From contig JABSRG010000040.1 in NCBI GenBank assembly GCA_013215165.1, positions 1 through 36,017 on the forward strand: a stretch of DNA of 36,017 nt. The letters run 5' to 3'. Each line of letters starts with the position of its first letter. Positions within the stretch are counted from its first letter, which is position 1. The DNA is from Opitutales bacterium (GTDB lineage: Bacteria > Verrucomicrobiota > Verrucomicrobiia > Opitutales > JABSRG01). The position numbers were made by a program, and so were the translations under genes. Below are positions 6,557-35,913 of the stretch, piece by piece. Below the pieces are notes generated by a model that did not search any database, was not told the origin of the DNA, and worked only from the letters and a program-made list of their open reading frames with translations.

Positions 6557-6727
6557 TCCATCGCGAAGCTATTCAAATTAATGCTAGCCCGATCGACCTG
6601 GTGCGTCGACGCCTCCGCGCTGATCGACTCCGGCGCTTCCAGCAAGCTCATGCACCTTCCGACATCTTACCTTTCACGCACCGCCCGTCTATAACCGTCG
6701 AAGCAGGAGGGCGACACATTCGCCATA

Positions 6728-7708: not shown

Positions 7709-7719
7709 TCACCTGTCCT

Positions 7720-8127: not shown

Positions 8128-8137
8128 CCCCACTAAG

Positions 8138-14013: not shown

Positions 14014-14014
14014 G

Positions 14015-15331
14015 ATGACTCACCGCTCACCAGTTTTTGAAGATCTGCTTGAACAGCCTGTGGCTGTCCTAGGTGCTGGGCTGAGTGGGCGCGCTGCTGC
14101 TGAGGCCTTAGAGCGACGTGGCTATGCGGTTGTCATCTATGATCGTGATTCTGGCCGGGGCACGGTGGATGATTTCTCGCCTAAAGCTGCGGCTGAGCAC
14201 CGTTTATGCATCGTGAGCCCTGGTTTTGCTGAGGATCATCCATGGTTAGTTACCGCTCGAAAACAGGGGTGCGTGATCCGCTCAGAGCTTTGGCTCGGGC
14301 GCCAGTTCTGGAAGGGTAAAATTATTGGCGTCACTGGCACCAATGGTAAGACGACGCTGACTCGATTGCTGGCGCATGCATTCAGTGTAGCTGGCTTTGA
14401 TGCCCAGGCGGTGGGTAATGTGGGCTTGCCTCTCTGCGCCATAGTCGACGATTCAAAGAATCACGCCGATAGCATCGCGGTGTGTGAGATCAGTTCGTTC
14501 CAGGCAGAATCGAGCCAAGAGCTACACCTCAATGGACTGATCTGGACCAACTTTGCAGAGGATCATCTTGATCGCTACGCTAGCATGGAGGCCTACTTTG
14601 CGGCTAAAGCGTGGTTGTTTGAGTCTCTGGTCTTTGAAGCTCCGGTAATTGCTGGGGAGTCGGTGTTTGCCTTCGCCGATGAGGCGAAAATCAACCTGCC
14701 GATCAGCGTCGAGAGAGCTCCAAAAATCGCCCGCGCTTGCCTGCCGCCCGCCTTTCGGCTGGGGCCACGTGGTGAGACCTTTCACCAAGGTGCGGCACTC
14801 TGGCAGGCCTTAGGACTCTCTTTGGAGCACTGGCGCGAAGCAGCCTCGAGTTTTCAGTTTGATCGTCATCGCCTCGAGTTCTGCGGAGAGCAGGAGGGAG
14901 TGCGTTTCTGGAATGATTCGAAGGCGACTAATTTTCATGCCTGCTTGGCAGCCGTCGATGGCATAGAAGGCCCGATTTTCTGGATCGGTGGTGGACGGAG
15001 CAAAGGTGGGGACCTGGATGGCTTCGCCGAGCAGCTTTCTAGCGATATCTCCGCGGCCTACATCGTGTGTGCCGATCCCGAGGCGATTAGCCGTTCCTTC
15101 ACTCCGTTTATGACAACCAAGGATTACGATCAGCTGGATTCTGCTGTGAATGATGCCTATCTAGATGCGATGCACTGTGGGGGCGGGGATGTGCTCTTTA
15201 GTCCGGCTTTTTCCAGCCTTGATCAGTATGATAGCTTTGCGGATCGCGGCGATGCCTTTGTCGACGCAGTTCGGCGTCTCGATTTTGAACCTACTCACCG
15301 GTTTTTCACTCAAACCCTTCATCTAATTTAA
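14015..15331 (+). CDS. murD: UDP-N-acetylmuramoylalanine--D-glutamate ligase MurD
   Basis: 438 aa with a Rossmann N-terminus (VAVLGAGLSGRAAA) and GVTGTNGKTT. Confidence 0.9.
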   Translation: MTHRSPVFEDLLEQPVAVLGAGLSGRAAAEALERRGYAVVIYDRDSGRGTVDDFSPKAAAEHRLCIVSPGFAEDHPWLVTARKQGCVIRSELWLGRQFWKGKIIGVTGTNGKTTLTRLLAHAFSVAGFDAQAVGNVGLPLCAIVDDSKNHADSIAVCEISSFQAESSQELHLNGLIWTNFAEDHLDRYASMEAYFAAKAWLFESLVFEAPVIAGESVFAFADEAKINLPISVERAPKIARACLPPAFRLGPRGETFHQGAALWQALGLSLEHWREAASSFQFDRHRLEFCGEQEGVRFWNDSKATNFHACLAAVDGIEGPIFWIGGGRSKGGDLDGFAEQLSSDISAAYIVCADPEAISRSFTPFMTTKDYDQLDSAVNDAYLDAMHCGGGDVLFSPAFSSLDQYDSFADRGDAFVDAVRRLDFEPTHRFFTQTLHLI

Positions 15332-15332
15332 C

Positions 15333-16565
15333 ATGAAATATATTGGCATAGCTCTGGTCGTCTTTGTGCATTTGGCTGCCGGTCTGTTCCTGATCACCCA
15401 GCCCGGTTGTCAGACTACGGATAGCGCCGACGCAGAGTCTCCGATGATACCCACAGCAATGTATGGGGAAGATACGGCTCCCATCCCTGTTGATCCTCAG
15501 TCGTCTTCCAGCGAAGATCTGTTTGAGCCGATTGATCCGGCATTCAATACAGGAGCGCCGCGGCCCGTTGTGGTAAGTCGTGACAGTAGTATTTCTGTAC
15601 CGCAGCGTTCTGCGCCTACGCGCCCGACGCCATCTACCCGCCCGTCGGACAGCGGTGAAGTCATCGGTGTGCTATCCAACGTTCCAGACCCTGTGACCCT
15701 ACCAGCCGAATCATCCGATGATGAGGGCATATCTATCGTGACGTCGGGGCCAGCTTGGGTTGATTACACTGTTGTTTCCGGAGATAGCCTTTGGAAAATT
15801 TCGCGGAGCTTTGAGGTTTCTATCCAATCGATTCGTGAGGCCAGTCGTCTCACGTCTGATACGCTGCGAGTCGGCCAGGTGATTCAAATTCCCAAGGATG
15901 ATAATACCGTGCGTGTCGCAGCACCGCCTTCGGAGCTTGTCAGCGAGGCTGTGCCTGTCGAAGGCAGTCTAGGTCGTGAGTATATCGTCATGCCTGGGGA
16001 CACGCTATCACGCATCGCAGCACGCAATGGAACGTCTGTGGGTGCCATACGTTCGGCAAATAATCTAACGAGCGATGTGATACGCGTGGGCGAGCTCCTA
16101 ATCCTTCCTGATAATGTCGAGTCGGCTCCGGCCATAAGAGAGCGTTCTGCACCTGCGCCTGCGCGCGGCGTCTACCACGAAGTAAAATCGGGTGAAAACC
16201 CCACAATCATCGCGCGGCGTTATGGTATATCGGTGGGACAGCTCATGGCTTGGAACAATAACTTTGATCCCCGATTGCTTAAGGTCGGGCAGCGTCTCCA
16301 GGTCGGCGAGATCAGCAATGCAGGAGCCCAGGAGGTCACTATCGAGCCTCGAGATCAGGCAAATTTCCGCGAAGTAACGAGCGAAAACCAGGAGGTTGAA
16401 GTGGACCTACCACAGACCCCTGAATCCAACTCAGTTCGTCAGCCTCAACCTGCTTCGGTTTCAGAGCTCAACACGGCACCTGCGCCCACCGAGGCCGATT
16501 TGGAAGCCCTTTTAGAAGATTTGGAGAATGCGCCGGTCGTTTCTCCCGTGCGTGTAGAAGAATAA
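15333..16565 (+). CDS. Secreted or membrane-anchored protein with three LysM domains embedded in the dcw cluster
   Basis: It has an N-terminal hydrophobic signal/anchor and Pro/Ser-rich linkers. The three LysM repeats are YTVVSGDSLWKIS, YIVMPGDTLSRIA and YHEVKSGENPTIIARRYG. Its ends are translationally coupled to murD and ftsW. Confidence 0.75.
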   Translation: MKYIGIALVVFVHLAAGLFLITQPGCQTTDSADAESPMIPTAMYGEDTAPIPVDPQSSSSEDLFEPIDPAFNTGAPRPVVVSRDSSISVPQRSAPTRPTPSTRPSDSGEVIGVLSNVPDPVTLPAESSDDEGISIVTSGPAWVDYTVVSGDSLWKISRSFEVSIQSIREASRLTSDTLRVGQVIQIPKDDNTVRVAAPPSELVSEAVPVEGSLGREYIVMPGDTLSRIAARNGTSVGAIRSANNLTSDVIRVGELLILPDNVESAPAIRERSAPAPARGVYHEVKSGENPTIIARRYGISVGQLMAWNNNFDPRLLKVGQRLQVGEISNAGAQEVTIEPRDQANFREVTSENQEVEVDLPQTPESNSVRQPQPASVSELNTAPAPTEADLEALLEDLENAPVVSPVRVEE

Positions 16566-17734
16566 TGCATCTTGAAAGCGTAGATACTCCCGTCGCCCAG
16601 AAACCCGCATGGACTGCCCTGCGGTGGGACGACTACGCGCTTTTGCTCATAGTTCTGGCACTGACTTCTTTGGGTATTGTGGTCTTGTTGAGCAGTACCT
16701 ACGTCCTCGATAGCGCGGATGCATTCGCCATGCTTAAGAAGCAGGCGGTCTGGCTAGTCGTTGCTTCCTTGGCTGGTTTAATTGCTTGGCGAATCGATGT
16801 CCACGAACTACGCGACCTGGTGTGGTGGCTGGCCGTTCCAGCGATACTGCTGTGCGCTCTTGTCTTTATCCCCCCGTTTGGGCGTGAGATCAATGGGGCG
16901 AATCGTTGGTTAATATTGGGTCCGTTTCGTTTTCAAGTGGCTGAAGCAGTTAAGGTCGCGCTGGTATTCATCCTCGCTCATTATCTCGCTGAGAATAAGC
17001 GCAAACTTAACGAGAAAATACGCGGGGTTATTTTCCCGGGTTTAATTATTGGAGTGGCCTTTGGTATGATTCTTTTGCAGCCCGACTATGGGACTGCGTT
17101 CCTCTGTGCCCTAGTCGGCGGGTGCATGTTATACCTCGCCGGTGGTGCGCTGAAGTATTGGGTGCCTCTGGGGATCTTAGGATTGGCTGGTTTTGCAACT
17201 CTTATCTACCACAACCCTGAACGTCTAAGTCGGGTGACCTCATTTCTAAGTTTAAATTCCGAGGTAGTACGCGGCGACGAGGGCTACCAGCTGTGGCAAG
17301 GCATTTTGGGTTTTGCATCTGGGGGTATGAGCGGTGTGGGTTTGGGCGATGGACGTCAGCAGATTACCTATCTACCCGAAGCGCATACCGACTTTATCTT
17401 TTCGATTGTGGGCGAGGAGCTTGGTTTAATTTTTACGCTGCTGATTGTTATCCTTTTCCTGGCACTATTTTTTCTTGTGGCCCTAAGGATTCGTCGCGCG
17501 ACGAGCCTGTATGAGTGCCTACTCGTTCAGGGTAGCCTGCTATTTATTGTGTTCCAGGCCCTGATTAATATGGGCGTGGTGACGGGTGTGCTACCTACAA
17601 AGGGAATGTCGCTCCCCTTTATCAGCTATGGCGGATCAAACCTAATTCTGATGTTTTTCTTCATTGGTTTGATTATCAATGTCAGCTCACGCTGGTCCGC
17701 TGTCCCCAAACGGGAAAGGGTACGGAGTGAGTAA
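16565..17734 (+). CDS. ftsW: SEDS-family peptidoglycan glycosyltransferase FtsW
   Basis: 389 aa with about 10 TM segments and conserved PDYGTA / PEAHTDFIFS motifs. Confidence 0.9.
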   Translation: MHLESVDTPVAQKPAWTALRWDDYALLLIVLALTSLGIVVLLSSTYVLDSADAFAMLKKQAVWLVVASLAGLIAWRIDVHELRDLVWWLAVPAILLCALVFIPPFGREINGANRWLILGPFRFQVAEAVKVALVFILAHYLAENKRKLNEKIRGVIFPGLIIGVAFGMILLQPDYGTAFLCALVGGCMLYLAGGALKYWVPLGILGLAGFATLIYHNPERLSRVTSFLSLNSEVVRGDEGYQLWQGILGFASGGMSGVGLGDGRQQITYLPEAHTDFIFSIVGEELGLIFTLLIVILFLALFFLVALRIRRATSLYECLLVQGSLLFIVFQALINMGVVTGVLPTKGMSLPFISYGGSNLILMFFFIGLIINVSSRWSAVPKRERVRSE

Positions 17735-18869
17735 GTTTATCATTTCTTGTGGAGGCACTGGCGGGCACCTCTCACCGGGTATTGCCTTGGCAGAGTCACT
17801 TATTTCGCAGGGGCATATTTGCATGCTCTTGGTGAGCGAAAAGCAGGTCGATTCTCGATTGATCCGTAAATATCCTGCCTTGCAAACACGACCTTTAGCC
17901 GGTGCTTTCTTTTCCCTTTCGCCCCTGCGTTTTGTTAAGTTTGTTGTGAAAACGATCCGGGGCATCAAGGGGATGAGTAAGATTTTGAAAGACTTTGAGC
18001 CCCAGGCTGTCATCGCTTTCGGTGGATTTCTTTCTTTGCCTGTTCTCAGTGTCGCGCGGTGGAAGAAGACAACGATCATACTCCACGAGGCCAATCGTGT
18101 GCCGGGTAAGGCGACCCGAATGTTCCGGAAGGCTGCTTCGAGGGTTTATCTACCGCGGGGTCTTAGACTGCGCGGTGTGAAGCCGGATGTTATCCGTGAC
18201 TTTGGGTTCCCGGTGCGAAAAGAGTTTCGAAAGATCGGCAAGGACCGAGCTCGACAGAACATCGGTATGCCCAAGAACGGAAAGCTCCTGGTTATCCTTG
18301 GGGGAAGCCAGGGAGCCCAAGCACTCAATGAGTGGGCGCGCGATCATTTCGAGCAGCTCGCTGGCTTGGGCGTTCATATTTATTGTGTCACGGGAATGGG
18401 TCAGGGCATTACAGGGCGCTATGAACGCGAATTTGAAAATGGGCCCAACATCGTCGCAGAGTTCGTGAATTTCACCGACCAAATGGCAGATGTGATGAGC
18501 GCTGCGGATCTTATCGTAACGCGTGCTGGTGCGGGGACTCTAGCGGAACTCGTGCGCTGTCGGACTCCTGGAATCCTGGTCCCTTATCCCTTTGCGGCCG
18601 ATAACCATCAAGATGCTAATGCGCGCTTCTTCGAGCAGCAGGGTGGAGGGATTGTTCTTGGTCAAGAGTCAATCGGTCAACTGTTCGCCGAGGTGGAGGA
18701 GTTACTATTCAACGATTGGTTATTGTCGCAACTGCAACGTAATCTTTCACGCATGGATGACGCACAAGTCCTGCAAAATACGGTCGATGATCTAGAGAAA
18801 CTCGTACTGCCTCTTGAAGAGCAGGCGGGGTATCTCGAAAAGTCTCTGGGAAGGAGTCAAGAGCTCTGA
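17727..18869 (+). CDS. murG: Undecaprenyl-PP-MurNAc-pentapeptide GlcNAc transferase MurG (GTG start at 17727; the ORF extends to 17679)
   Basis: The N-terminal ISCGGTGGHLSPGIA glycine-rich loop is present. A GGAG ribosome-binding site lies upstream of the GTG start, which overlaps the ftsW stop by 8 nt. Confidence 0.85.
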   Translation: MSKFIISCGGTGGHLSPGIALAESLISQGHICMLLVSEKQVDSRLIRKYPALQTRPLAGAFFSLSPLRFVKFVVKTIRGIKGMSKILKDFEPQAVIAFGGFLSLPVLSVARWKKTTIILHEANRVPGKATRMFRKAASRVYLPRGLRLRGVKPDVIRDFGFPVRKEFRKIGKDRARQNIGMPKNGKLLVILGGSQGAQALNEWARDHFEQLAGLGVHIYCVTGMGQGITGRYEREFENGPNIVAEFVNFTDQMADVMSAADLIVTRAGAGTLAELVRCRTPGILVPYPFAADNHQDANARFFEQQGGGIVLGQESIGQLFAEVEELLFNDWLLSQLQRNLSRMDDAQVLQNTVDDLEKLVLPLEEQAGYLEKSLGRSQEL

Positions 18870-20923
18870 TGGCTGTACGTGAGCAGATTCATTTTTTGGG
18901 CGTTGGGGGTATGGGTATGCTCCCGCTTGCTCTTCTTGTGGCTCAGGCAGGATACCGCGTGACAGGTGAAGACGATAATCTAGATGCCGGGGCTTCGAGT
19001 CTTTTGGAATCCGCATCTGTCGAAGTCGCTGTTTCTGGATTTTGGGAGCATGGAGCCTTGCCGCAGCGCTTTGTTTATTCTCCGGCATTTGATGTGGCTC
19101 ATCCTTCACGGAAGCGTCTTTCAGATGCCGGAGTAGAAGGCTTGAGTCGCGGTGAGCTTTTAGCAGAGCTGGCGGGAGAAAAGCGTTTGTTGGCTATCTC
19201 TGGTTCTCATGGGAAGTCTTCCACGACCGCCGCATTGATTCGTGCGCTGGGTGATGTCGGTTTTGAATGCAGTTATTACCTTGGGGCGCGTTTTCAGGGA
19301 GATGACTTATTGCCTGCAGTTTGGAACGATGCTGACTGGTTGATCGCCGAGGTCGACGAGAGCGACGGATCGATTGATTTATTTGAGCCAGAGCTAAGTG
19401 TCATCACTCAGATCGATTTTGATCATCCCAGCCAATACGCTGACGCGAAGGCTTATGCGTTAGTGTTTGATTCACTGCGCTGTCGTACGCGGGGGACCAT
19501 TATTGAGGGGCGCCCCTTGGAGGGTGCAGGACTGCGTTTAGAACGCGAACGCCTTGTCCGCGAGACTTTGGCTGCACTCGGAGTTGAGGCTAACGCAGAT
19601 TTTTTACCTGAATTGAAGCGCCGGCAAGAGGTTTTGCACGATGATGGATCGTTAAAGGTTATTCATGATTATGCTCACCATCCGGCTGAAATTGAGGCTT
19701 TGTTGTCAGAGCCCGATTTCGCGGGTTCGACAGTAGTCTTTGAGCCCCATCGTTACGGGCGCACTGCTGTGTTTGCGGAAGCGTTTGGTCGTGTGCTGAG
19801 AGATGCTCGCACGGAGTCCGTGCATTTGCTTCCGATTTATGCTGCTTTCGAGAAAAACGATGGGACGCGTGCTGAGTCGATTGCACAAAGCCTGCCGAGA
19901 GCGATTGTGCACACCAATGAACCTGAAGCCTTTGAAGTTCTGCTGAAGCAGTCTTCGGATGGAGGACGTTTCCTTTTCGTTGGTGCTGGGACGGTAGATC
20001 GCTTCGCCGAAGCATTTGTGGCAGACAAGGTATGTATCCAGCGTAATGTTAGACTTTCTGGAAAAACTACCATGCGTGTGGGTGGAGCGGCTGAATACTA
20101 CGCCGAGCCAGCCAATTTAGCAGAGCTGAGAGCTGTGCTCACTTGGGCTAAACTTAAAACGGTCCCGGTCTTTCCCCTGGGGCGAGGTTCCAATGTGATC
20201 ATTCCAGACGAGGGGATCTCAGGCCTGGTCATCCGCTTGAGTGAGGATGCATGGAAGGGTATAGAACTCTTACCTGATGGGCGTCTGCGTGTGGGCGGTG
20301 GGGTGCGCCTGCGGGATATCTGTGTGAAGGCGGCTCAAGTATCCATGGACGGGCTCGAATTTATGGAGGGTATCCCGGCATCACTCGGTGGAGCGTTACG
20401 CATGAATGCTGGTGCAATGGGAAAATGGATGTCTGATGTGGTGGAGTCAGTCAGGCTCATGAAGTGGGATGGCAGTGTGGCAGTCTATCCGCGCGAGGCA
20501 TTAACTTTTGCTTACCGCTCAACCGTGGAACTCGCCCAAGGATTTGTCTTAGACGCGGTGTTGAGGGGCGGTAGCGGTGATCACGACACCGACGCAATTC
20601 GCGGGAGGATGCATACATATATGAAATCGCGCAAAGAATCTCAGCCGCGCGAAGCGAGCGCGGGCTGTATCTTCAAGAACCCCGAAGGCGATCATGCGGG
20701 CCGCCTCATTGATGTATGCGGGCTAAAAGGGCACAGTCGCGGTGGTGCGATGGTATCTACGATACATGCAAATTTCATCGTTAATACCGGCGCTGCTACG
20801 GCGGCAGATGTTTTAGGTCTCATCAATGAAGTCCGTGCCTCTGTTAAAGCGGAAACGGGAGTCCTACTGGAGCCTGAAGCTGTGTTGCTTGGAAATGAAT
20901 GGAAGGAGGTCTTGGCGGGATGA
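18869..20923 (+). CDS. murC-murB: Bifunctional MurC (UDP-MurNAc--L-Ala ligase) – MurB (UDP-GlcNAc-enolpyruvate reductase) fusion protein
   Basis: 684 aa. The N-terminal 390 aa or so carry Mur ligase motifs (GSHGKSSTT, DYAHHP, FEPHRYGRT). The C-terminal 290 aa or so carry the MurB FAD-binding fold (RVGGAAEYYAEP..GRGSNVI...CIFKNP). Confidence 0.8.
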   Translation: MAVREQIHFLGVGGMGMLPLALLVAQAGYRVTGEDDNLDAGASSLLESASVEVAVSGFWEHGALPQRFVYSPAFDVAHPSRKRLSDAGVEGLSRGELLAELAGEKRLLAISGSHGKSSTTAALIRALGDVGFECSYYLGARFQGDDLLPAVWNDADWLIAEVDESDGSIDLFEPELSVITQIDFDHPSQYADAKAYALVFDSLRCRTRGTIIEGRPLEGAGLRLERERLVRETLAALGVEANADFLPELKRRQEVLHDDGSLKVIHDYAHHPAEIEALLSEPDFAGSTVVFEPHRYGRTAVFAEAFGRVLRDARTESVHLLPIYAAFEKNDGTRAESIAQSLPRAIVHTNEPEAFEVLLKQSSDGGRFLFVGAGTVDRFAEAFVADKVCIQRNVRLSGKTTMRVGGAAEYYAEPANLAELRAVLTWAKLKTVPVFPLGRGSNVIIPDEGISGLVIRLSEDAWKGIELLPDGRLRVGGGVRLRDICVKAAQVSMDGLEFMEGIPASLGGALRMNAGAMGKWMSDVVESVRLMKWDGSVAVYPREALTFAYRSTVELAQGFVLDAVLRGGSGDHDTDAIRGRMHTYMKSRKESQPREASAGCIFKNPEGDHAGRLIDVCGLKGHSRGGAMVSTIHANFIVNTGAATAADVLGLINEVRASVKAETGVLLEPEAVLLGNEWKEVLAG

Positions 20924-21843
20924 AGCAGCCGGACTTATGTGTGCTCTACGGCGGAGTGGGCGGTGAGCGTGCTGTATCGCTTGCCTCGGGCAAAGCGGTC
21001 ATTGCGGCGTTGGAACAAAGTCATGCCGTACACGCCTATGATATTCAAAGAGCGGAAGTGCCGGCTTTTATCGATCCGAGCCGTATGATCGTGTTGCCAG
21101 TGCTGCACGGTCAATTTGGTGAGAATGGGGTGCTGCAAGATGCTCTTGATGATGCTGAGGTGGTGTATGCCGGTTGTGCGGGAGAAGCCAGCGCTCAGTG
21201 TATGGATAAGGTCCAAACCAAGCAGGTTGCTTCGCGGTCAAATCTAGTCGTTGCTGAGTCTGTAGTTTTTGATGGGTCCCTACATCCATCTTGGTTCGAA
21301 CTCGTGTCGCTGCTGGGTGACAGTTTCGTAATAAAGCCGGCAGACGCGGGCAGCAGCGTAGGGCTTCACTTTGTCGATGACGAATCCGGTCTACTTACTG
21401 CGATCGAAGACATCCAATCTGGAAAATGGATGGCGGAGAGTCGTGTTCGAGGTTACGAGGTGAGTGTTGGCGTGTTGGATGGCAAGGCTCTGGGTGTGGT
21501 GGGAATCCGACCGCAAGGCGGCGCCTATGACTACAAGCACAAATATACGCCGGGCTATTCGGAATATGATGTGCCTGCGTGTCTCGTGGAAAAAGTGCGG
21601 GAAGAGGTAAGCCAAGCTGCAGAGACGATTTTCGAAGCGTGTGGTTGCCGAGATTTTGCTCGGGTGGATTTTATTATAAATGGACGGAGTGAGCCGGTGC
21701 TTTTGGAGGTTAATACCTTGCCAGGACTTACCCCAACGAGTCTGTTACCCAAAAGTGCTTCGTGTGAAGGAATTGATTTTAATGACCTACTGGACCGGAT
21801 GCTCGCTGGTGCAGTAGAACGATGGAAGCAACGCTATGGGTAA
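20920..21843 (+). CDS. ddl: D-alanine--D-alanine ligase Ddl
   Basis: ATP-grasp fold (VLYGG..ERAVSL.. ; EVNTLPGLT). A GGAAGGAGG ribosome-binding site lies upstream, and the start overlaps the murC-B stop (ATGA). Confidence 0.85.
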   Translation: MKQPDLCVLYGGVGGERAVSLASGKAVIAALEQSHAVHAYDIQRAEVPAFIDPSRMIVLPVLHGQFGENGVLQDALDDAEVVYAGCAGEASAQCMDKVQTKQVASRSNLVVAESVVFDGSLHPSWFELVSLLGDSFVIKPADAGSSVGLHFVDDESGLLTAIEDIQSGKWMAESRVRGYEVSVGVLDGKALGVVGIRPQGGAYDYKHKYTPGYSEYDVPACLVEKVREEVSQAAETIFEACGCRDFARVDFIINGRSEPVLLEVNTLPGLTPTSLLPKSASCEGIDFNDLLDRMLAGAVERWKQRYG

Positions 21844-22816
21844 GGCTAAGAAAAAACATTCAGATACCCACCAACAGGCTCAGACTTGGAAAGAAGCTAT
21901 TCGACAAAATACGCGCGAACGGCCCCAGACTGTAATTGCTCTTCGTCGGCGTTGGGCTCCTTATTTTTCAGGATTTTGTATATTCACTATTTTGTTATGC
22001 ATTGGGTTGTTGGGCTGGAATAGCCGCGATGTTCTCGCAGACTTGCAGAAGCGCGTTCTACTCGATCAAGCAGAAGGAGATGTTGTCCGTGAGATCGAGT
22101 TTTCCTCTGACGGTGTGCTTACCGAAGGTTGGGTAAAGCGTGAGCTTAATTTGTTTGAAGATGCGTTTCCTCTAGACGCGGACATTTTTGCTTTGCAACG
22201 AGATTTGGAAACGGTTGATCAGATCAAATCGGCGACTGTAAAGCGTAGTTTCGCCGAGGCTTCATTGAGTATCCGTGTGGAAGAGCGTGACCCGGTCTTC
22301 AAGATGATGATCGCCACTGACGGCGGGCGGGTGGCGCGTCTGGTGGATAACGAGGGCGTCTTGTTTAGCCCCCACGGATTTTCCCGTGCCCAGCTGCGTC
22401 GATTGCCCTGGCTTGGTGGGGTGAATTTGGTTGAGGTCAGCCAAGGATTTGCCCCGATTTCTGAGATCGATAGATTGCTCGATGTCCTGGAACGGACCGA
22501 GGTATTGGCCCCACAATTGTTCAGTGACATCCAAGTGGTTCAGATTGAGCCGCGCTCAAAGTTATCCCCTCTGCTTGGAGAGAATATCGTATTCCGGACG
22601 TCATGGTGTGAGCGCTTGGTGTTGTCTGAAGGGGATCTAGACGAGCAACTGATCGACCTTGATACCGTGGTTGCAGAGTTTCCAGGCGATTGGGCGTCGG
22701 TTGGATCGATGCCGATGGCCTTGATCGATTTAACGATGGAGGGATACGCTGTAGTCAAAGCTTCCCCGCGAAGAGCGGATCGAGCTCGTTCCCCCGCACC
22801 TTATTCGATTCTATAG
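21836..22816 (+). CDS. ftsQ: Cell division protein FtsQ/DivIB (POTRA domain)
   Basis: 326 aa with a basic N-terminus, a single TM and a periplasmic domain. It sits in the conserved slot between ddl and ftsA. Confidence 0.7.
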   Translation: MGKAKKKHSDTHQQAQTWKEAIRQNTRERPQTVIALRRRWAPYFSGFCIFTILLCIGLLGWNSRDVLADLQKRVLLDQAEGDVVREIEFSSDGVLTEGWVKRELNLFEDAFPLDADIFALQRDLETVDQIKSATVKRSFAEASLSIRVEERDPVFKMMIATDGGRVARLVDNEGVLFSPHGFSRAQLRRLPWLGGVNLVEVSQGFAPISEIDRLLDVLERTEVLAPQLFSDIQVVQIEPRSKLSPLLGENIVFRTSWCERLVLSEGDLDEQLIDLDTVVAEFPGDWASVGSMPMALIDLTMEGYAVVKASPRRADRARSPAPYSIL

Positions 22817-22827
22817 TGGGTAGCCGC

Positions 22828-24045
22828 ATGTCCGAGAATCCGATCATAGGGGCTATTGAATTAGGAACTTCCAAGGTGGTCGCCCTGGTGGGCGAGATTC
22901 TGGATGATGGTTCGCTGGCTGTTCTGGGGCATGCCGACTGTTCGACCCAAGGTGTGGTGAAGGGTGAAATCGTCGATTTTAAGTCAGTTTGTGCCTGTGC
23001 GCATACTGCCATTGAATCGATCGAAGATGAAGCTGGTGTGCCGCTTGATACAGTTTATCTGGCATTGACGGGAAAGCATTTTAAGGGGCGGCAGAACACG
23101 GGCATCACACCAGTGCAGTCTGCAGATGGTTGTGTGCAGCAGGAAGATATTGATCGCGTGAGCGAAGAGGCCAAGCGGCGTCCGTTGGACCCAGGCAGCA
23201 TCTACATCCAGCACATGCGCAATGGGTTCAGTCTCGATGGGCGCTCTATCTCGGATCCTCTGGGGCAGCCTGGAGAGCGTTTAGAAGCCCATTATTGGTC
23301 GGTGTTTGGGGACCAGGCAAAAGTCGAGGAGCTGATGCGGGTTGTAAACGGTTTTGGCCTGGAGCTCGAAAGTATCGTTCTCTCAAGCAGCGCGGCAGCT
23401 TCCATGCTCCTGACTGAGGAGGAAAAAAAGGCGGGGGCTCTGGTGGTCGATATCGGATGCGGCACCACGGATTATGCAGTGTATAAAGATGGTTGCGTTC
23501 GACGTACAGGGGTGCTCGCAGTAGGAGGTGAGCATATAACGAATGATCTTGCGATGGGGCTGCGTATCAGTCGCAAACGCGCTGAATTTTTGAAGTTAAC
23601 CCATGGTAAAGCGACTCTATCGAAAGAGGACCGCAACCAGTCTATCTGGACGCATGGAGATTACACGATCGGCGATAGTATGATTACTCAATATGCTATC
23701 AGCCAGATCATAAGTGCACGTGTCGAAGAGATATTCCAGATTGTCCGCAAGGAGCTGGGAGAGGCGGGGGAGTCTGATTATATCCCTTCTGGTGTTTTTA
23801 TTACGGGTGGCTCGGCGCATATAAAAGAACTCGCTCAGGCGGCTGCCAAAGTCTTCGGGGTGTCCGCTCGTGTTGCCAGGTTACCGCGTTGGGCCAGCGA
23901 AACCCTGGCGCAGCCAGAGTATGCCACCGTCATGGGGTTACTCCATTTTGCTCTTCAGGCCCGTCAGGGAGGCGGCACGGGTGGACGTGTCGCGGAAGGA
24001 AATATCCTGCGTAAAGTCGCGCGCATTTTGAATTTCAATGTCTGA
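22828..24045 (+). CDS. ftsA: Cell division protein FtsA (actin-like ATPase). Start at MSENPIIGAIELGTSK.
   Basis: Actin/Hsp70 fold motifs are present: IGAIELGTSKV, VVDIGCGTTD, GVFITGGSA. Confidence 0.9.
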   Translation: MSENPIIGAIELGTSKVVALVGEILDDGSLAVLGHADCSTQGVVKGEIVDFKSVCACAHTAIESIEDEAGVPLDTVYLALTGKHFKGRQNTGITPVQSADGCVQQEDIDRVSEEAKRRPLDPGSIYIQHMRNGFSLDGRSISDPLGQPGERLEAHYWSVFGDQAKVEELMRVVNGFGLELESIVLSSSAAASMLLTEEEKKAGALVVDIGCGTTDYAVYKDGCVRRTGVLAVGGEHITNDLAMGLRISRKRAEFLKLTHGKATLSKEDRNQSIWTHGDYTIGDSMITQYAISQIISARVEEIFQIVRKELGEAGESDYIPSGVFITGGSAHIKELAQAAAKVFGVSARVARLPRWASETLAQPEYATVMGLLHFALQARQGGGTGGRVAEGNILRKVARILNFNV

Positions 24046-25324
24046 AAATCTTCCAGAGCAGATCGGAATAAAGATCGCCGTGGTAGCGGTGGGTGGTGCG
24101 GGTCTTCGGGTTTTAGATCGCATGCAATTGGAAGACGCGGAACAGTTGCGTCTGATCGCGATCGATGCCCATGCTCAGACGCTGAACAACAGTCAGGTAG
24201 CACGAAAAGTCTTGGTCGGTCGTAAATTGACCCGGGGCATGGGCACCGGTGGTGATATCGAGCGAGGCCGGGATGCGGCCATGCAAGACCGCCAAGCTTT
24301 AGAAGAAACCTTGGAGGGCTTTGACTTGGTTTTTCTATTGGTGGGCCTGGGGGGAGGCAGCGGCAGCGGGGTAGCTCCTGTCGTGGCGGAGATCGCGAGC
24401 GACCAGGGTTCTGTGGTCATTGTATTTGGGACACAGCCCTTCGCTTTCGAAGGAAAGAAACGCAACGATGACGCTGCGGCTGCTGCAGGACGCTTGCGCG
24501 ATGTCAGCCATGCAGTAATCTCTTTACCTAACGATTTGTTGGTGCAGCCGGATTGTGATGAACAGTCGGTACTCAATGCACTGGGAATGGCTGATGCATG
24601 GATGGAGCGTGGCGTCCGGGCTATCAGTGCCATGGTGACGCGGCCTGGGTTAATCAGTCAGGATTTTGCGGCACTCCAAAGTGTGCTTTCAACTTTGAGC
24701 AACAAGAGTTTATTTGGCCTAGGGGTTGGCGAAGGCAGCGATGCAGTGGATCAAGCTCTCAGGCAGCTGCGTCAATGTCCGTTGCTACAGACACCGGAAG
24801 GTATGCATCGCGCTGAGAAGCTGATAGTGAATATCACCGGAGGTAGTGATCTAACCATGGCTGATGTGCATCGTATCGTGAATGCGGTGAATGAAGTGTT
24901 CATCAGCCGCGAAGATACTGTCTTTGGAGCAAATATTGATGAATCTGTCCGCGAGATGGTCGAAATCTGTGTGCTGGGTGTCAGTAATATGGGTCACGAA
25001 GCGGTAGCACTCGATGTTCAGCGCACGTCTGCTGCTGTTATGCCGCCGCGCGCACCGTCGAAACCGAAGCAGCCACTGGATCCAGTTATCCCGGTCGAGC
25101 AGCCGCGCGAAAAGCGGGCGAAAAAGAGCAAGCCTGTGGTGCGTGTGCATCGTTCTAAGCTCGGCCCCAAGCAGGCAGATTTACTCGAACAGGAAGAGTT
25201 TCTATTTCTCGCGAATGACGAGCAGCGGGGAATCTTTGAGGATACTGAGCCTAATGAATACGCTGGTGAAGATCTGGATGTACCCACATTTTTGCGTCGC
25301 GGGGTAAAGGTAGCTTTGAAGTGA
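24038..25324 (+). CDS. ftsZ: Cell division GTPase FtsZ
   Basis: N-terminal IKIAVVAVGGAGLRV. The tubulin signature appears as the variant GLGGGSGSG. A long Pro/Arg/Lys-rich C-terminal linker is present. Confidence 0.85.
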   Translation: MSENLPEQIGIKIAVVAVGGAGLRVLDRMQLEDAEQLRLIAIDAHAQTLNNSQVARKVLVGRKLTRGMGTGGDIERGRDAAMQDRQALEETLEGFDLVFLLVGLGGGSGSGVAPVVAEIASDQGSVVIVFGTQPFAFEGKKRNDDAAAAAGRLRDVSHAVISLPNDLLVQPDCDEQSVLNALGMADAWMERGVRAISAMVTRPGLISQDFAALQSVLSTLSNKSLFGLGVGEGSDAVDQALRQLRQCPLLQTPEGMHRAEKLIVNITGGSDLTMADVHRIVNAVNEVFISREDTVFGANIDESVREMVEICVLGVSNMGHEAVALDVQRTSAAVMPPRAPSKPKQPLDPVIPVEQPREKRAKKSKPVVRVHRSKLGPKQADLLEQEEFLFLANDEQRGIFEDTEPNEYAGEDLDVPTFLRRGVKVALK

Positions 25325-29999: not shown

Positions 30000-30387
30000 G
30001 GTTTTTATTTTGGGTTTGTGTTTCCCAGCCCTTGGGGCTGGAGGGCGGCGCTTCACCGCCGCCGCGGGATCTTAGAAATGAGAGGGACCCGAGAGAGGAG
30101 GACTCAATCCGCCCATCCCAGCTACTGATCGCGGAGTCTGGTTTGAGTGTGGGCGCGGAGTCCTTGTTACTTGCGATTCACGCCGAAGTAACTGACCACA
30201 GCGCAGAACGATTTGTAGCAAACGACGCCGCTTCCGCACGGTATCCACCGGACTGCTGGCGAGGTCGACTGTTGAGAGCGATTGGCATCGTTAGATGACT
30301 TATCGGTCTCAGATGTTGGGAGAGCATCCTCCCCTCATCGGGTGTTATTTTGGCTTTCTATGCCGGAGCCATTTTTAGTGGCGTGCG

Positions 30388-30459
30388 TGCGATAGGGCGG
30401 ATTCGAACCACCACTACAGGAGCCGTATTCCTGCGAGCTATCCATTACTCGACTATCTG
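30388..30459 (-). tRNA. tRNA-Arg (anticodon ACG) candidate
   Basis: Hand-folded cloverleaf. T arm GGTGG-TTCGAAT-CCGCC, D arm with GG, anticodon loop AU-ACG-GC. Acceptor pairs 1:72 and 2:71 are mismatched in my fold. Confidence 0.5.
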
Positions 30460-30460
30460 G

Positions 30461-30534
30461 TGTACTGTCCGGGATTTGAACCCGAGACGAATAGCTTATA
30501 AGGCTACTGCTCTACCGAACTGAGCTAACAGTGT
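30461..30534 (-). tRNA. tRNA candidate with anticodon UAU (Ile-like), CCA encoded
   Basis: D arm TAGCTCAGTTCGGTAGAGC, anticodon arm GTAGC-CTTATAA-GCTAT, T arm TCGGG-TTCAAAT-CCCGG. The top two acceptor pairs are again mismatched. Confidence 0.45.
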
Positions 30535-30606
30535 GGGCCCAGGCCGGATTTGAACCGGCGTCTTCCTCTCGATAGAGGCTACTCTACCTGACTGAGTTAC
30601 ACGAGC
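30535..30606 (-). tRNA. tRNA-like sequence, possibly a pseudogene (aberrant anticodon arm)
   Basis: Canonical T arm (GCCGG-TTCAAAT-CCGGC) and D arm (ACTC-AGTCAGGTA-GAGT). The anticodon region folds as a 5-bp stem with a 4-nt loop (CCTCT-atcg-AGAGG), and the acceptor pairs poorly. Confidence 0.3.
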
Positions 30607-31207: not shown

Positions 31208-31462
31208 GGGTTTGGATGAATTGGGTTTATTGAGAAGTCCTACAGTAGGGTTCTTAATTTATCACGTTCACCACCCGGCCAGATGCACTCGACGCGCGTG
31301 TTCATTCCCGTGTGGAATGAGCCAGCGCTCCGTATGAGCTTTTGGTCTAGAGTTCGTGGATTCATGTTATGTGAAAAGGGGAATTGAGATTCTTTGCAGA
31401 TTGAGATGCGTCAAATGAAAAACAGATTGGCGCATCGATAAGCTTTAGAGATAATGGCGGGG

Positions 31463-31615
31463 ATGAAGCTCAGTATTTTAATTATAAGTCTTGTCGCGCT
31501 AGGTATGAGCGGCTGCGGTCCACGCGTTGAGAACGGCGTGACCATAGAAAAGAATGGTTGGTTTGGACTGGACGAGCAATCACGGCAGGTCCCTGAGATG
31601 GGTAATCCGGGGTAG
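31463..31615 (+). CDS. Small putative lipoprotein (about 50 aa; MKLSILIISLVALGMSGC...). Absent from the ORF track because it is under 60 aa.
   Basis: A signal peptide with a lipobox-like LGMSGC and a clean ORF to TAG at 31613. It sits at the left boundary of the 200-bp repeat. Confidence 0.35.
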   Translation: MKLSILIISLVALGMSGCGPRVENGVTIEKNGWFGLDEQSRQVPEMGNPG

Positions 31616-31678
31616 GCACTCTGGCATCGTCCGTCTGCTTTATCCGACAGTCGCCGCCGGAGACTTCGAAAGGAATAG

Positions 31679-31878
31679 ATCGGAAAGTCACCTGCCTCGT
31701 CTCAATCGAAGAGCGGCGCTCGGAACAGTATTGTTTGAAAATCCTGACCACAGCCAGCGCTTCGACGAAGAGAGAAGAGATCCCCCCAAAAATCTGTGCC
31801 CATCTGAGAAATCCATGGTTAAAAGAGTTTCAACCTCGCGCCCGCTTCGCTCGAGGTGCAGAGGCCGCAGAGAAAGTA
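31679..31878 (+). repeat. About 200-bp noncoding direct repeat, copy A (homology extends upstream into the lipoprotein gene 3' end)
   Basis: About 80% identical by eye to 34825–35022. Indels break every reading frame. A perfectly conserved core reads CTGTGCCCATCTGAGAAATCC(A/G)TGGTTAAAAGAG. Confidence 0.6.
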
Positions 31879-32087: not shown

Positions 32088-32342
32088 GTGAGGATGACAA
32101 TAACTCTATCGACGAAAGGCCAGATCGTTGTTCCAAGCGAAATTCGTGCTAAACTCGGCTTGGTACCTGGCTGTTGCCTTTCGTGCGAAATCGATGCTGC
32201 AGGTAGGATTGTCTTAGATCCGCTGCTTGAAGACCGGAAGGCTGAGGTTGTGGGCTCCGGGGAAGATATCGCGCTTGTTGCTCCTGTAGGTTCACCGGAT
32301 ATGTCGCCGAAATTGGTGAAAGACATACTTTCGGAAATATGA
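32088..32342 (+). CDS. vapB: AbrB/MazE (SpoVT-AbrB) fold antitoxin VapB-like
   Basis: 84 aa (MRMTITLSTKGQIVVPSEIRAKLGL), with a 4-nt ATGA overlap with the downstream PIN gene. Confidence 0.7.
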   Translation: MRMTITLSTKGQIVVPSEIRAKLGLVPGCCLSCEIDAAGRIVLDPLLEDRKAEVVGSGEDIALVAPVGSPDMSPKLVKDILSEI

Positions 32343-32746
32343 GTCGCAAATCAGTATTGATCGACGTCAACCTGCTACTGGCAGTGGGTTGGAAGAGTCA
32401 TACTTTTCATCCCGAGGTGAAGGCTTGGCTTGATACGGGTGTCAAGGTTTCGACGTGTGCGATTACTGAGCTCGGCTTTTTGCGCGTGAGTATGAGTCCC
32501 GCCTTTCGCGCAGATTTTGCGAGTGCATCATCGGTTTGTTCTGCAATTACTTCCAGATACGCATTCGATTTTCTGCCTTGTGATTTGAGTCCATTAAGTA
32601 TGGCGAGTGTCAGTCGGCACCAAGACACCACAGATTCTTATTTGGTATCACTCGCCAGTTCTCATGAATTAAAGTTGGCGACATTAGACGATAAGCTGCT
32701 ATCTGCTGAGTGGGGGAAGGGCATGGCCTACAATCCGATTGCCTAG
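32339..32746 (+). CDS. vapC: PIN-domain ribonuclease toxin VapC-like
   Basis: 135 aa with conserved acidic positions (LIDVNLLLA, ITELGF, ATLDDKLL). Confidence 0.7.
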   Translation: MSRKSVLIDVNLLLAVGWKSHTFHPEVKAWLDTGVKVSTCAITELGFLRVSMSPAFRADFASASSVCSAITSRYAFDFLPCDLSPLSMASVSRHQDTTDSYLVSLASSHELKLATLDDKLLSAEWGKGMAYNPIA

Positions 32747-33309
32747 GGTCTGAACGGGCCGGTGCACTGAACGCTCTCAATGTCACTAAGTTCAGTGCTC
32801 ATTAGCTCGAAATAGGGTTAAAATTTCCTTTCTGATTTCCAGATGTTTCTGGGAATCGTTGGCCACTCTTTTCCGCGGTTGCGGTGTTCGCGGTTCGTGA
32901 CGGCCAGGGCGAATCGGGATTTTGTCTTTGAAGATCAGCTCCAAAAGCGCTTGGGTCGACTGGTCCCGTTTCGGTCGGTTCTGATGGATTAAGCTCCTGA
33001 ACTGTTTGAGCGTATCTATGCTGCCTGTGAAACTGAGCCAGCTCAGTGGGCGCGTTGAGGAGACTATGTGGCGTAGGCGCAAAGTGAATATTAGTTTGGA
33101 TGGCTGCTGCGCCTCATGAGCTAACGGGGTTTTGATTTATTCAATGAACACAGCCACGTCGATTATACTGCAAATCATTGTAATTCGGATGATGATCGAA
33201 GAAGCTCTTAAATCGTTTCATTATCGTTTCAATTTATCCTTTACGTTATCTTCGACCTCAATATATAAAAGAATTGGATCCAGGATTAATTGTTTCAACG
33301 AACTCTCTT

Positions 33310-34704
33310 ATGGGTAGCAAAAATTTGCTTAATTTCCTCAAAATCAACGGTCCTACTTTGTCGAGTGAGCTTGTGGACCGGTTGGGGATCAGTCGTGCAT
33401 CATTGTCTCGCCGCGTGCGAGAAGAGGGGAGTCGCATCGTGAGCATAGGGAAAGCTCGAGCCACTCGGCTTGCTGCTAGAGATGAAGGCTTGTCAGAGGC
33501 TGTGGCGCTTTATCAAGTCCAAACAAACGGTGAGGTTCTCTTTGTCGGGGCACTCCATGCTCTTGCAGACGGTGAGCACACGCAGTGGTATTTTGAATCC
33601 GAAGGGGGGCAGGAAAGCCTTATGGGAGGCGAGTTTAAACATGGATTATTTCCTGGGTGGCCTTGGTTTCTAGACGATATGCGACCGCAAGGGTTTCTAG
33701 GTCGCGCTTTTGGTAAGCGAATGGCAAAGCTTTTTCAGTATCAAGATAGCCCTGATACCTGGAGTGATCTACAGCTTTTGAATGCCCTCAAAGGGTTTGG
33801 ATGGAACTCGCATGGTAATTTTATTCTTGGCGATGCGAATGCATTGCAGGCGTTTCAAGCACATAAGTTGCGTGTGGCTGATGGCTTTTATAATAAAATT
33901 TCTCCTACAACATATCCTCAGCAAGCTCGCAAGGCTCTTGAGGAAGATGAAGCTTACGGCTCTTCTGCTGGAGGTGAACAGCCGAAGTTTACATCGATGG
34001 TGTGTGACGAAGAGCACTCTATGCCTCGTTCTGTGATTGTGAAATTCAGTCCAAAAATCGATACACCCGTGGGTAAGCGCTGGGCGGATTTGCTACATTC
34101 GGAAGATGTATCTAATCAGGTCCTACGAGAGATTGGATTTTCGGTAGCTGAAACGCGTATTTTTGTATTTGAATCACGCGTATTTTTGGAGTCATTACGT
34201 TTTGACCGAGCCGGTGCTTTGGGACGACGCGGCCTTGTGTCGTTACGCTCCTTGGATGCGGCCTACATTGGGACGGGGCAGGGCTCGTGGGCAAAGGTAG
34301 CTCGAGTATTACACACAGATGGCTGGATCAGCTCGGGCGACTGCCGACGCATCATTCAGTTACAGTGTTTTGGGGAACTTATCGGAAACTCCGACATGCA
34401 TTGGGGGAATCTAAGTTTCTTTCTCCCTAAAAATGGTTCATTCCCCCTAGCGCCTGTCTACGATATGTTGCCTATGTTCTTTCGCCCCACAAACACTGGA
34501 GAACTCCTAGAGCGCGTCTTCAAGCTTCGTTTGCCGAATCCAGAAGATCAAAATGAATGGTTGGAAATGCACTCACACGCGATGACTTTTTGGCGACGTA
34601 TTATAGATCATTCAGGAATCAGTAGGGATTTTAAAGCCATCGCAAAAGATGCCCTCGCTGCTGTGAATCGTCTTCCAGGTGTGGTGATGAGTAATAAAGC
34701 ATAA
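33310..34704 (+). CDS. YjjJ/HipH-like kinase: N-terminal HTH fused to a HipA-family Ser/Thr kinase domain (alternative start 33274)
   Basis: The HTH LLNFLKINGPTLSSELVDRLGISRASLSRRV mirrors the E. coli YjjJ N-terminus. HipA-like motifs are GSSAGGEQPKFT, NSDMHWGNLSF and APVYDMLP. Confidence 0.7.
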   Translation: MGSKNLLNFLKINGPTLSSELVDRLGISRASLSRRVREEGSRIVSIGKARATRLAARDEGLSEAVALYQVQTNGEVLFVGALHALADGEHTQWYFESEGGQESLMGGEFKHGLFPGWPWFLDDMRPQGFLGRAFGKRMAKLFQYQDSPDTWSDLQLLNALKGFGWNSHGNFILGDANALQAFQAHKLRVADGFYNKISPTTYPQQARKALEEDEAYGSSAGGEQPKFTSMVCDEEHSMPRSVIVKFSPKIDTPVGKRWADLLHSEDVSNQVLREIGFSVAETRIFVFESRVFLESLRFDRAGALGRRGLVSLRSLDAAYIGTGQGSWAKVARVLHTDGWISSGDCRRIIQLQCFGELIGNSDMHWGNLSFFLPKNGSFPLAPVYDMLPMFFRPTNTGELLERVFKLRLPNPEDQNEWLEMHSHAMTFWRRIIDHSGISRDFKAIAKDALAAVNRLPGVVMSNKA

Positions 34705-34824
34705 ACTAAGGCCTAAAATGATGGTAACACAGTGCTCAGAAACAATCGGAAGGCAGCTATCAATCAGTGGCTCATACTTGACGATATGGAAATGGATTTT
34801 TTTGGACTCGGACCACGTGAAACT

Positions 34825-35022
34825 GATCGGAAAGTGACCTGCCTCATCTCAATCAAAGACTGCCTCTCGAAAGTGCATTCTTTGAAACCCTGATCACAGA
34901 AAGCACTCCGACGAAGAGAAAAAAGGTCCCCTTAAAAAGATCTGTGCCCATCTGAGAAATCCGTGGTTAAAAGAGTCTTTACCTCGCGCCCGCTTCGCTC
35001 GAGACGCGGAGGCCGCAGAGAA
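34825..35022 (+). repeat. About 200-bp noncoding direct repeat, copy B (with degenerate remnant of the lipoprotein 3' end upstream, about 34790–34824)
   Basis: Aligns with 31679–31878. Relative to copy A it carries an upstream deletion of about 85 nt. Confidence 0.6.
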
Positions 35023-35148
35023 AATGTCACATGAAAATTGGGAAATAGGCAGTTCAATCGCGATAGAGTTTAGCCGTCAACAGACCGGTCATTGGCGAAT
35101 CGGGAATGCAGTCGAAAATATGGATGATTTGAGCTGAATCTTCAGGGC

Positions 35149-35574
35149 ATGAAGATATCAGGACGATTTGTTGATATAATATTAACTGTTCCGCAAAAGA
35201 TAATGAGATATTTTGTCTATACGCTAATGTATTTCGGAATTACAGTCTTGGTTTTTGCAGAGACTCCAGATGAGGCCGCAAAAAGAATAATTAAGAGCGA
35301 GTCTAGTTTTGGCTACAATCCAGTTGATGAAAGCAGTCAGGAGATGGTAAAGGCCACCGCTATTAATTCTAGGATGCGCTTGAATTGGTTGATGGTCCAT
35401 AGTGATAGTGTCACAGAAGAGCTTAGAATTTGCTATGCGCTCACCCTTATTCAAAAGAATCTGGAGTTTATGGAAAGCTCAAGGAGTGGTGTGCAAGCGC
35501 TACCTAAGGAGATCCAGCTACTTGAAGCCCAGAAACTGTTGGCAGACAGGTTACTTGTTATTCGGTCTCGGTGA
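35149..35574 (+). CDS. Hypothetical small secreted protein
   Basis: 141 aa with an N-terminal hydrophobic signal-like segment (MRYFVYTLMYFGITVLVFAETPDEA). AT-rich. Confidence 0.35.
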   Translation: MKISGRFVDIILTVPQKIMRYFVYTLMYFGITVLVFAETPDEAAKRIIKSESSFGYNPVDESSQEMVKATAINSRMRLNWLMVHSDSVTEELRICYALTLIQKNLEFMESSRSGVQALPKEIQLLEAQKLLADRLLVIRSR

Positions 35575-35619: not shown

Positions 35620-35913
35620 AAAAAGGCGTTATAATACTGGGATGGGGCTGGTTGATATCGCGCGCGTGCCGCAGGGATCAGTAAGCAGCATCTGATGCGA
35701 CTGTATCGGCACCATTTTGGTTTTTCACCGATGAGCGATCTCTGGAGAGTTAGAATAGAGGCGAGTAAGCGCCTTCTTGCAGAAACAGGCCTCACTTCAG
35801 AAAAGATTGCATATCGCTGTGGCTTTCAGTCACCCTATCATTTTTCGAGAAAATTCAAAGAGTTGGTCCGAGTCGGTCCTAGAGAATTCAGAGTTCAGTG
35901 TTGGGAGGATTGA
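35620..35913 (+). pseudogene. AraC/XylS-family HTH domain remnant, frameshifted (only the C-terminal DNA-binding domain, split across two frames near 35690)
   Basis: The segments GLVDIARV (one frame) and AGISKQHLMRLYRHHFGFSPM...IAYRCGFQSPYHFSRKFKELVRVGPREF (another frame) together make a canonical AraC double HTH. A 1-nt indel sits in a GCGCGCGTG run. Confidence 0.5.

Follow-up and report, generated by a model that had tools for sequence, protein, structure and literature searches.

HipH, known as YjjJ (b4385) in Escherichia coli K-12, corresponds to clade X in the Hip kinase phylogeny (Gerdes et al. 2021, PMC8262856). The E. coli protein has kinase activity, phosphorylates RpmE and CsrA, and autophosphorylates; its overproduction did not raise antibiotic tolerance (Gratani et al., PMC9948734). 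The same article, citing Maeda 2017, reports a rescue from E. coli HipH by HipB provided in trans. Liao et al. (PMC11452175) claimed for E. coli HipH a DNase activity that depends on its helix-turn-helix (HTH) domain, linked it to biofilm persisters, and proposed cyclic di-GMP (c-di-GMP) as a small-molecule antitoxin of HipH. Gerdes et al. (2021, PMC8262856) stated that the control of YjjJ activity was unknown and suggested that the HTH of HipH may restrain the kinase. Here, we analyze a hipH gene in a 36,017-nucleotide (nt) stretch of DNA, hereafter the window, from an Opitutales bacterium of the Verrucomicrobiota (assembly GCA_013215165.1, contig JABSRG010000040.1). The best overall explanation, to which we give a probability of about 0.75, is that its product is an ortholog of E. 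coli HipH and that its promoter carries short boxes predicted to be bound by HipH itself. The gene call is ordinary: the family is already known and the record already annotated, as the identical protein carries the YjjJ name in GenBank. The new element is a predicted family-wide operator system, in which the recognition helix of the protein and the sequence of the box are related.

An intact frame runs on the plus strand from a TTG at 33274 to 34704 and encodes 476 amino acids (aa), as the original prediction had described. An in-frame ATG at 33310 yields a 464-aa product, followed by the stop, that is identical to the GenBank entry [quoted passage not shown]. Because of this identity, and because the N-termini of the relatives (464–467 aa) line up with the ATG form, the ATG is most likely the start codon; the predicted frame is kept and its predicted start is not. 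The YjjJ equivalog NF007297 is the sole NCBIfam family matched by the product (439.6 bits for a curated cut-off of 401; protein 17–467, model 5–438 of 446 positions), with control scores of 675.7 bits for E. coli HipH and 35.5 bits for the canonical HipA of the window. By BLASTP, the product and E. coli HipH align collinearly across 444 residues at 36% identity (223 bits), whereas matches to E. coli HipA (43 bits) and to the HipA of the window (35 bits) are confined to the kinase core. Pairwise and profile scores thus set the protein clearly apart from HipA and HipT and point to the YjjJ/HipH class, the assignment made originally. The hidden Markov model search then advised returned a significant match to Pfam HipA_C (E 7.8e-25, residues 230–462 in the 476-aa numbering) and HTH profiles at sub-threshold level only (Pfam; MarR_2, E 1.4e-4). 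Couple_hipA was not matched by the product at E up to 1.

The region upstream of hipH was aligned with the corresponding regions of three relatives (protein identity 47–60%). The only conserved DNA consists of a tandem TCGTTTCA-N3-TCGTTTCA and a third copy near the start codon, which in the window is TTGTTTCA, with one mismatch. The two tandem boxes have an 11-bp period and lie immediately upstream of a −35-like hexamer; together, the three boxes frame a sigma-70-like promoter candidate (table 1). When 13 upstream regions of the clade of the window are aligned, invariant columns are restricted to the three boxes and the −35/−10-like positions. In most relatives of this clade, box 3 lies directly against the start codon, as TCGTTTCATG (loci L010, L011, L014, L018, L019, L021, L024, L033, L016, and L013; in each, some 20 nt ahead of the match start). 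Judged from the mismatch in box 3 and its distance of 13 nt from the ATG, the start region of the window has shifted relative to its clade. A second tandem-box site does not occur within the 36-kb window, and therefore no local regulon is evident.

This organization is not confined to the clade of the window. We counted boxes with up to one mismatch in the 215 nt upstream of each gene and used the opposite strand, coding DNA, shuffled sequences, and non-cognate boxes as controls. All 17 loci with an SR[PA][TS]L helix carry at least two cognate TCGTTTCA boxes, with a mean of 3.06 (controls: opposite strand 0.06, coding 0.06, shuffled 0.10, non-cognate 0.06). Similarly, 45 of the 46 loci with an SQ... 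(Gln29) helix carry at least two boxes of their cognate sequence, TCTATTCA, with a mean of 3.00 (0.11, 0.02, 0.13, and 0.15 for the same controls). At a typical locus, a sigma-70-like promoter is flanked by about three 8-bp boxes on the same strand, and the spacings between boxes cluster at 11–12 bp (tandem) and 65–67 bp (across the promoter). E. coli K-12 belongs to the Gln-type group. Upstream of b4385 (NC_000913.3; L001:5670-5766), four same-strand ATCTATTCA boxes are found at −100, −35, −23, and −11 from the hipH ATG, around TTGAAT-17-TATACT.

The sequence of the box changes jointly with the beginning of the recognition helix, from residue 29 onward. Residue 29 is the helix position that correlates with box specificity: it is an Arg in the window and a Gln at the same place in E. 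coli. In a first, crude typing, which compared any Arg29 with Gln29 while the rarer Arg-type helices were still pooled, at least two TCGTTTCA boxes were present in 18 of 27 Arg29 loci versus 1 of 43 Gln29 loci (Fisher p = 3e-9, a value inflated by the relatedness of the loci). Five rarer helix variants have repeated boxes of their own in the same layout: SRQTLSRR is found with TCGTC[CA]CA, SRPV[LF]ARL with ATCGTAAAGAAAC, NRMALSRL with a paired [AC]GTAACA, DRSTITRAV with TTCGCTGCA, and DRSTVSRGL with TNTGTGCA. In total, at least seven helix/box classes can be distinguished. In a neighbor-joining tree of the kinase domain, which comprises HipH members only and no other Hip family, the pairing of Arg with TCGTTTCA is found at a minimum of three to four separate places.

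As the boxes travel with hipH across genomic contexts and change with the recognition helix, we infer that the DNA-binding domain fused to the kinase targets the hipH promoter and that HipH thereby controls its own gene. In this model, hipH would be transcribed from its own sigma-70-like promoter; the winged helix would bind the three same-strand boxes that bracket it, and HipH would in this way regulate its own production, with repression more likely than activation. If it behaves like E. coli HipH, whose targets include RpmE (L31) and CsrA, the kinase would phosphorylate cellular proteins, may inhibit growth when in excess, and may be tuned by autophosphorylation of two loop serines, here Ser218 and Ser219. 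More generally, HipH kinases across bacteria might be self-contained, one-protein autoregulatory circuits that read same-strand 8-bp operators, a generalization to which we give even odds. Within such circuits, Arg29 would pair with TC-GT-TTCA and Gln29 with TC-TA-TTCA. The 11- to 12-bp repeats on the same strand suggest, speculatively, a head-to-tail occupancy of one face of the DNA, and the separation of about 66 bp across the promoter might permit bridging.

Two sets of published data from E. coli are consistent with this model. The yjjJ promoter was scored with two repressor sites by Reg-Seq (PMC7567609), and c-di-GMP was reported both to regulate E. coli hipH "at the promoter region" and to bind HipH (Liao et al., PMC11452175). 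An RpoD-binding site was located in the deoD-yjjJ spacer by Shimada et al. (PMC3946193), and the −10 element proposed there, TCTATT, overlaps one of the boxes. Operators or autoregulation of hipH are not mentioned in PMC8262856, PMC9948734, or PMC11452175. In a literature search of partial coverage, we found no published description of hipH operators, including the E. coli boxes, and the box sequence returned unrelated primer matches only.

Several points weigh against the overall explanation. The link between HTH and boxes is one of co-variation and position only. Winged helices of the ArsR/MarR type mostly bind palindromes as dimers, and same-strand direct repeats are unusual for them. The promoter hexamers of the window are weak and fall below the threshold of a consensus scan. 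The number of independent helix/box switches is approximate, since the neighbor-joining tree carries no support values. The toxicity of HipH was found in one study to be independent of the catalytic motif (PMC11452175). Reg-Seq attributes one of the yjjJ sites to MarA (PMC7567609). The main contrary evidence is a chromatin immunoprecipitation-exonuclease (ChIP-exo) experiment with tagged E. coli YjjJ, in which no binding peaks were obtained under the conditions used (bioRxiv 10.1101/2021.06.10.447994).

This ChIP-exo result and the MarA assignment would fit a different reader. The boxes may be genuine regulatory elements of hipH that are recognized by a host transcription factor or by RNA polymerase, as UP-like or promoter elements, with the winged helix of HipH serving another purpose such as nucleoid targeting; the general nucleoid localization reported for HipH (PMC11452175) agrees with such a role. 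However, the boxes always accompany hipH despite unrelated genomic contexts across phyla, and a host factor or polymerase does not predict at least seven classes in which helix and box change in step. We therefore consider another reader unlikely and retain autoregulation by HipH.

The anatomy of the protein bears on what HipH does once it is made. Residues are numbered on the 464-aa form; motif coordinates were confirmed by translation and alignment, landmarks were compared in a seven-sequence alignment, and conservation was assessed in 50 homologs at 40–60% identity. The AlphaFold2 model, built from a 50-sequence alignment, has a predicted local distance difference test (pLDDT) score of 92.1 and a predicted template modeling score (pTM) of 0.90, and its sole low-confidence segment is the Gly-rich loop (residues 215–221, pLDDT <50). 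Residues 1–58 are modeled as a winged helix of three helices and two strands, and their predicted secondary structure is unchanged when the domain is modeled in isolation, in line with the HTH fused to a HipA-like core that had been predicted originally. According to the model, HipH keeps a HipA-like N-subdomain region behind this HTH. The strand triplet at its beginning contains the family-invariant G80-x-L82, which aligns with "VGEL" of HipA. The HipA-type Ser/Thr kinase core spans approximately residues 216–464.

The loop and catalytic motifs expected of an active kinase are intact (table 1). K245, D362, H364, N367, and D385 are invariant among the seven aligned sequences and, like Ser218-Ser219, invariant or at least 90% conserved across the 50 homologs; the catalytic Asp residues, whose loss on proper alignment had been named as decisive against the prediction, are retained. 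Ser218 and Ser219 line up with S200 and S201 of E. coli HipH, which are autophosphorylated in YjjJ (PMC9948734). The catalytic landmarks are thus all present, consistent with a predicted kinase competence. A sequence search of solved structures retrieved no HipH; the best match was HipT(Lp) (E 3.9e-5).

These features speak to the claim that the main effect of E. coli HipH is an HTH-dependent cleavage of DNA, restrained by c-di-GMP, to which the kinase motifs would be secondary. In that study, deletion of residues 340–372 kept the toxicity and deletion of the HTH abolished it, plasmid DNA was cleaved in vitro, and c-di-GMP was bound with a dissociation constant of 7.6 uM (PMC11452175). Conversely, neither Pfam, NCBIfam, nor a fold search disclosed a nuclease-type domain or motif in the hipH product. 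Phosphoproteomics and in vitro work have established both the kinase activity of the E. coli protein and its substrates (PMC9948734), and the complete or near invariance of the kinase residues in 50 diverse homologs implies selection on kinase activity. DNA cleavage as the main effect appears improbable to us, about as much as a foreign reader of the boxes, and it would be compatible with autoregulation by HipH.

Table 1. Positions of hipH, its predicted control elements, and other features of the window
Feature	Position	Strand	Basis or remark
hipH/yjjJ coding sequence (464 aa + stop)	33310..34704	+	NF007297, GenBank identity, E. coli HipH alignment
Tandem boxes 1 and 2, TCGTTTCA-N3-TCGTTTCA, predicted HipH operator	33213-33220, 33224-33231	+	Upstream alignment
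Sigma-70-like promoter candidate, TTTACG-16-TATATA, between the boxes	33240..33267	+	Read from sequence
Box 3, TTGTTTCA, one mismatch	33290-33297	+	13 nt before ATG, 66 bp from box 2
Predicted N-terminal winged-helix DNA-binding domain, residues 1-58	33310..33483	+	AlphaFold2 model
Predicted recognition helix, residues 29-42, RASLSRRVREEGSR	33394..33435	+	Model, box co-variation
HipA-like N-subdomain region, residues 62-215	33493..33954	+	Three-strand sheet at its start (65-97)
Gly-rich (P-) loop GSSAGGEQPKF, residues 217-227	33958..33990	+	Identical to E. coli HipH loop
Lys245, ATP-binding lysine (HipA K181)	34042..34044	+	Invariant alignment column
Catalytic motif DMHWGN; D362/H364/N367 (HipA D309/H311/N314)	34393..34410	+	Alignment
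Mg2+-binding motif Y384-D385-M386; D385 (HipA D332)	34459..34467	+	Alignment
vapB-like, AbrB/SpoVT-type antitoxin gene	32088-32342	+	TIGR01439, 33.5 bits, cut-off 28.3
vapC-like PIN gene, overlapping the vapB-like gene	32339-32746	+	TIGR00028, 66.8 bits, below cut-off 73.6
Canonical hipA	2141-3358	-	HipA_C 3.4e-49, Couple_hipA 1.4e-17
hipB	3348-3611	-	HTH_3 2.5e-6; overlaps hipA by 11 nt
Direct repeat pair, about 200 nt	31676-31876, 34823-35024	+	80-91% identical, 3147 bp apart
tRNA cluster, Arg(ACG), Ile(TAT), plus a third tRNA	30387-30606	-	
Third tRNA of the cluster	30536-30606		Rfam only, 30.2 bits, barely over cut-off 29
Gene-poor segment	30601-36017		GC 0.476 vs 0.527 elsewhere
53-aa open reading frame (ORF)	31454-31615	+	Lipoprotein-like signal LVALGMSGC
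96-aa ORF inside the vapC-hipH gap	32792-33082	-	Probably spurious
141-aa ORF	35149-35574	+	Hydrophobic N-terminus, no Pfam match
72-aa ORF	35695-35913	+	Match limited to the C-terminal DNA-binding part (HTH_18/AraC), E 2.3e-15
159-aa ORF	34-513	-	Sub-threshold FRG-domain match, E 1.4e-4, 23.2 bits, cut-off 25
Long co-directional run of tightly packed ORFs	6086-25324	+	First product MraZ-like, 156 aa

By its gene layout, hipH is solitary in all relatives examined and has no linked antitoxin gene. We clustered the ORFs flanking hipH within 1.5 kb in 80 metagenome loci together with the window, E. coli, and locus L007. The largest shared flanking family occurs at no more than 7 of about 73 loci, and such cases reflect lineage-local synteny, e.g., deoD in enterics. 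Neither these approximately 73 loci nor the upstream alignments revealed a conserved partner or a hidden antitoxin around hipH; as the upstream regions cannot be aligned outside the boxes and promoter elements, there is no hidden conserved small ORF. No HTH gene of the hipB type is adjacent to hipH, as would be the case for canonical hipA, and neither hipS nor hipB stands upstream of it among the window ORFs, as would be the case for a hipT gene. The adjacent protein-antitoxin gene that strictly defines a type II toxin-antitoxin system is therefore missing, and the layout is that expected of a monocistronic HipH/YjjJ gene. The earlier statement that this kinase class has no separate antitoxin holds for linked genes; the HipB rescue in trans reported in PMC9948734 and the proposal made for c-di-GMP speak against its wider form. 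An Rfam search of the whole window at gathering thresholds, and of 30.5–36 kb at E up to 1, returned tRNAs only, with one far-sub-threshold YrlA-like match over the tRNA cluster, and therefore no known riboswitch or leader upstream of hipH.

As noted originally, hipH lies beside vapBC and some 30 kb (29.7 kb) from a canonical hipBA, whose HipB shares 31% identity with its E. coli counterpart. Both are modules separate from hipH. The vapBC-hipH block is bracketed exactly by the direct repeats of table 1, which might suggest that the three genes form one functional or mobile toxin-antitoxin islet. The genes share one strand, and they lie in a low-GC segment adjoining tRNA genes. However, the vapC-like gene and the hipH ATG lie 564 nt apart, with a promoter-like region and boxes of hipH in the interval, no integrase or transposase was seen in the segment, and vapBC is found beside hipH in no relative, the hipH neighbors on long contigs being unrelated. 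A single islet is thus a doubtful reading, clearly less probable than either of the two alternatives discussed above, and a solitary, self-regulated hipH is preferred. The remaining possibility, a decayed or catalytically dead HipA relic, is hinted at only by the gene-poor segment with its AraC fragment and is effectively refuted by the uninterrupted full-length frame, the intact catalytic landmarks, the confident model, and a score above the equivalog cut-off.

Other features of the window were recorded on their own account. The repeats, folded on both strands, gave z-scores of about 0, no sign of a structured RNA, and had no Rfam match. A scan of the genome contigs with a 23-mer of the repeat gave one match, in another Opitutales metagenome-assembled genome (L003:2027-2049, minus strand), which shares only a core of about 33 nt (AATCTGTGCCCATCTGAGAAATCCGTGGTT); the 200-nt unit is therefore not widespread in the scanned collection. 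The pair may have arisen by local duplication or recombination, or it may represent a short dispersed motif. The low-GC segment, in which vapBC, hipH, and the repeats all lie, has the appearance of a variable islet adjoining tRNA genes. The 72-aa ORF within it probably represents either a truncated gene of the AraC family or an ORF called from a wrong start. The 96-aa ORF on the opposite strand of the vapC-hipH gap is probably spurious because the region is not conserved in relatives. The run of packed ORFs looks like a dcw (division and cell-wall) cluster, as judged by eye from gene sizes and order.

The comparative result provides a candidate answer to the expression side of YjjJ control. 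It names exact candidate operators in E. coli K-12, the four ATCTATTCA copies upstream of b4385, and predicts a single-residue specificity switch in the HipH helix. If true, it would supply the missing control point of an "orphan" toxin kinase and would reconcile the action of c-di-GMP at the hipH promoter with its binding to HipH. Within 36 kb, the Opitutales genome would combine two Hip kinases of different control logic, in trans for hipBA and in cis for hipH, with a vapBC module. That the two Hip kinases differ in architecture agrees with the original prediction; the label "persistence-type" given there to both is not established for HipH, because YjjJ overproduction brought no gain in tolerance (PMC9948734), even though PMC11452175 links HipH to biofilm persisters.

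Among known systems, BirA, RbkR, and EzeT, a toxin with a cis-acting antitoxin domain, resemble HipH as enzymes joined to a DNA-binding or regulatory domain in one polypeptide, an arrangement in which the protein could control its own expression; BirA and RbkR carry an N-terminal winged helix and are among the structural matches of the HipH winged helix. Beyond a generic winged helix they share no homology with HipH, and the likeness is one of analogy, not of membership. In HipBST, as in HipH, a pair of serines adjoins the Gly-rich loop of the kinase core, and HipT(Lp) is, as mentioned, the closest solved structure by sequence. However, the N-subdomain is absent from HipT and comes in trans from HipS, whereas HipH has this region in the same chain; HipH aligns with HipT over 220–228 residues and with HipA over about 330. 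HipBST is encoded by three genes and HipH by one.

HipB performs the autoregulatory role for hipBA. Compared with the HipBA systems of E. coli and Shewanella, the HTH of the window protein is fused in cis and is predicted to be a winged helix instead of an XRE-type HipB; an antitoxin gene next to hipH is missing, as is a Couple_hipA match, and the identity of the HipA core to HipH is only about 25%. HipB recognizes palindromes, whereas the operators predicted for hipH are direct repeats. The closest counterpart is E. coli HipH itself. Both proteins have an N-terminal HTH followed by a collinear HipA-like kinase, a Gly-rich loop with a Ser-Ser pair, and the catalytic and Mg motifs, and both are encoded by solitary genes whose promoters carry same-strand boxes. 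They differ in their hosts, a member of the Verrucomicrobiota in one case and E. coli in the other, and in Ser217 of E. coli HipH, which has no conserved counterpart in the alignment. The E. coli recognition helix starts with Gln and is found with TCTATTCA, that of the window with Arg29 and TCGTTTCA. The layout of the boxes differs as well, with two upstream and one downstream of the promoter in the window, and one upstream and three downstream in E. coli.

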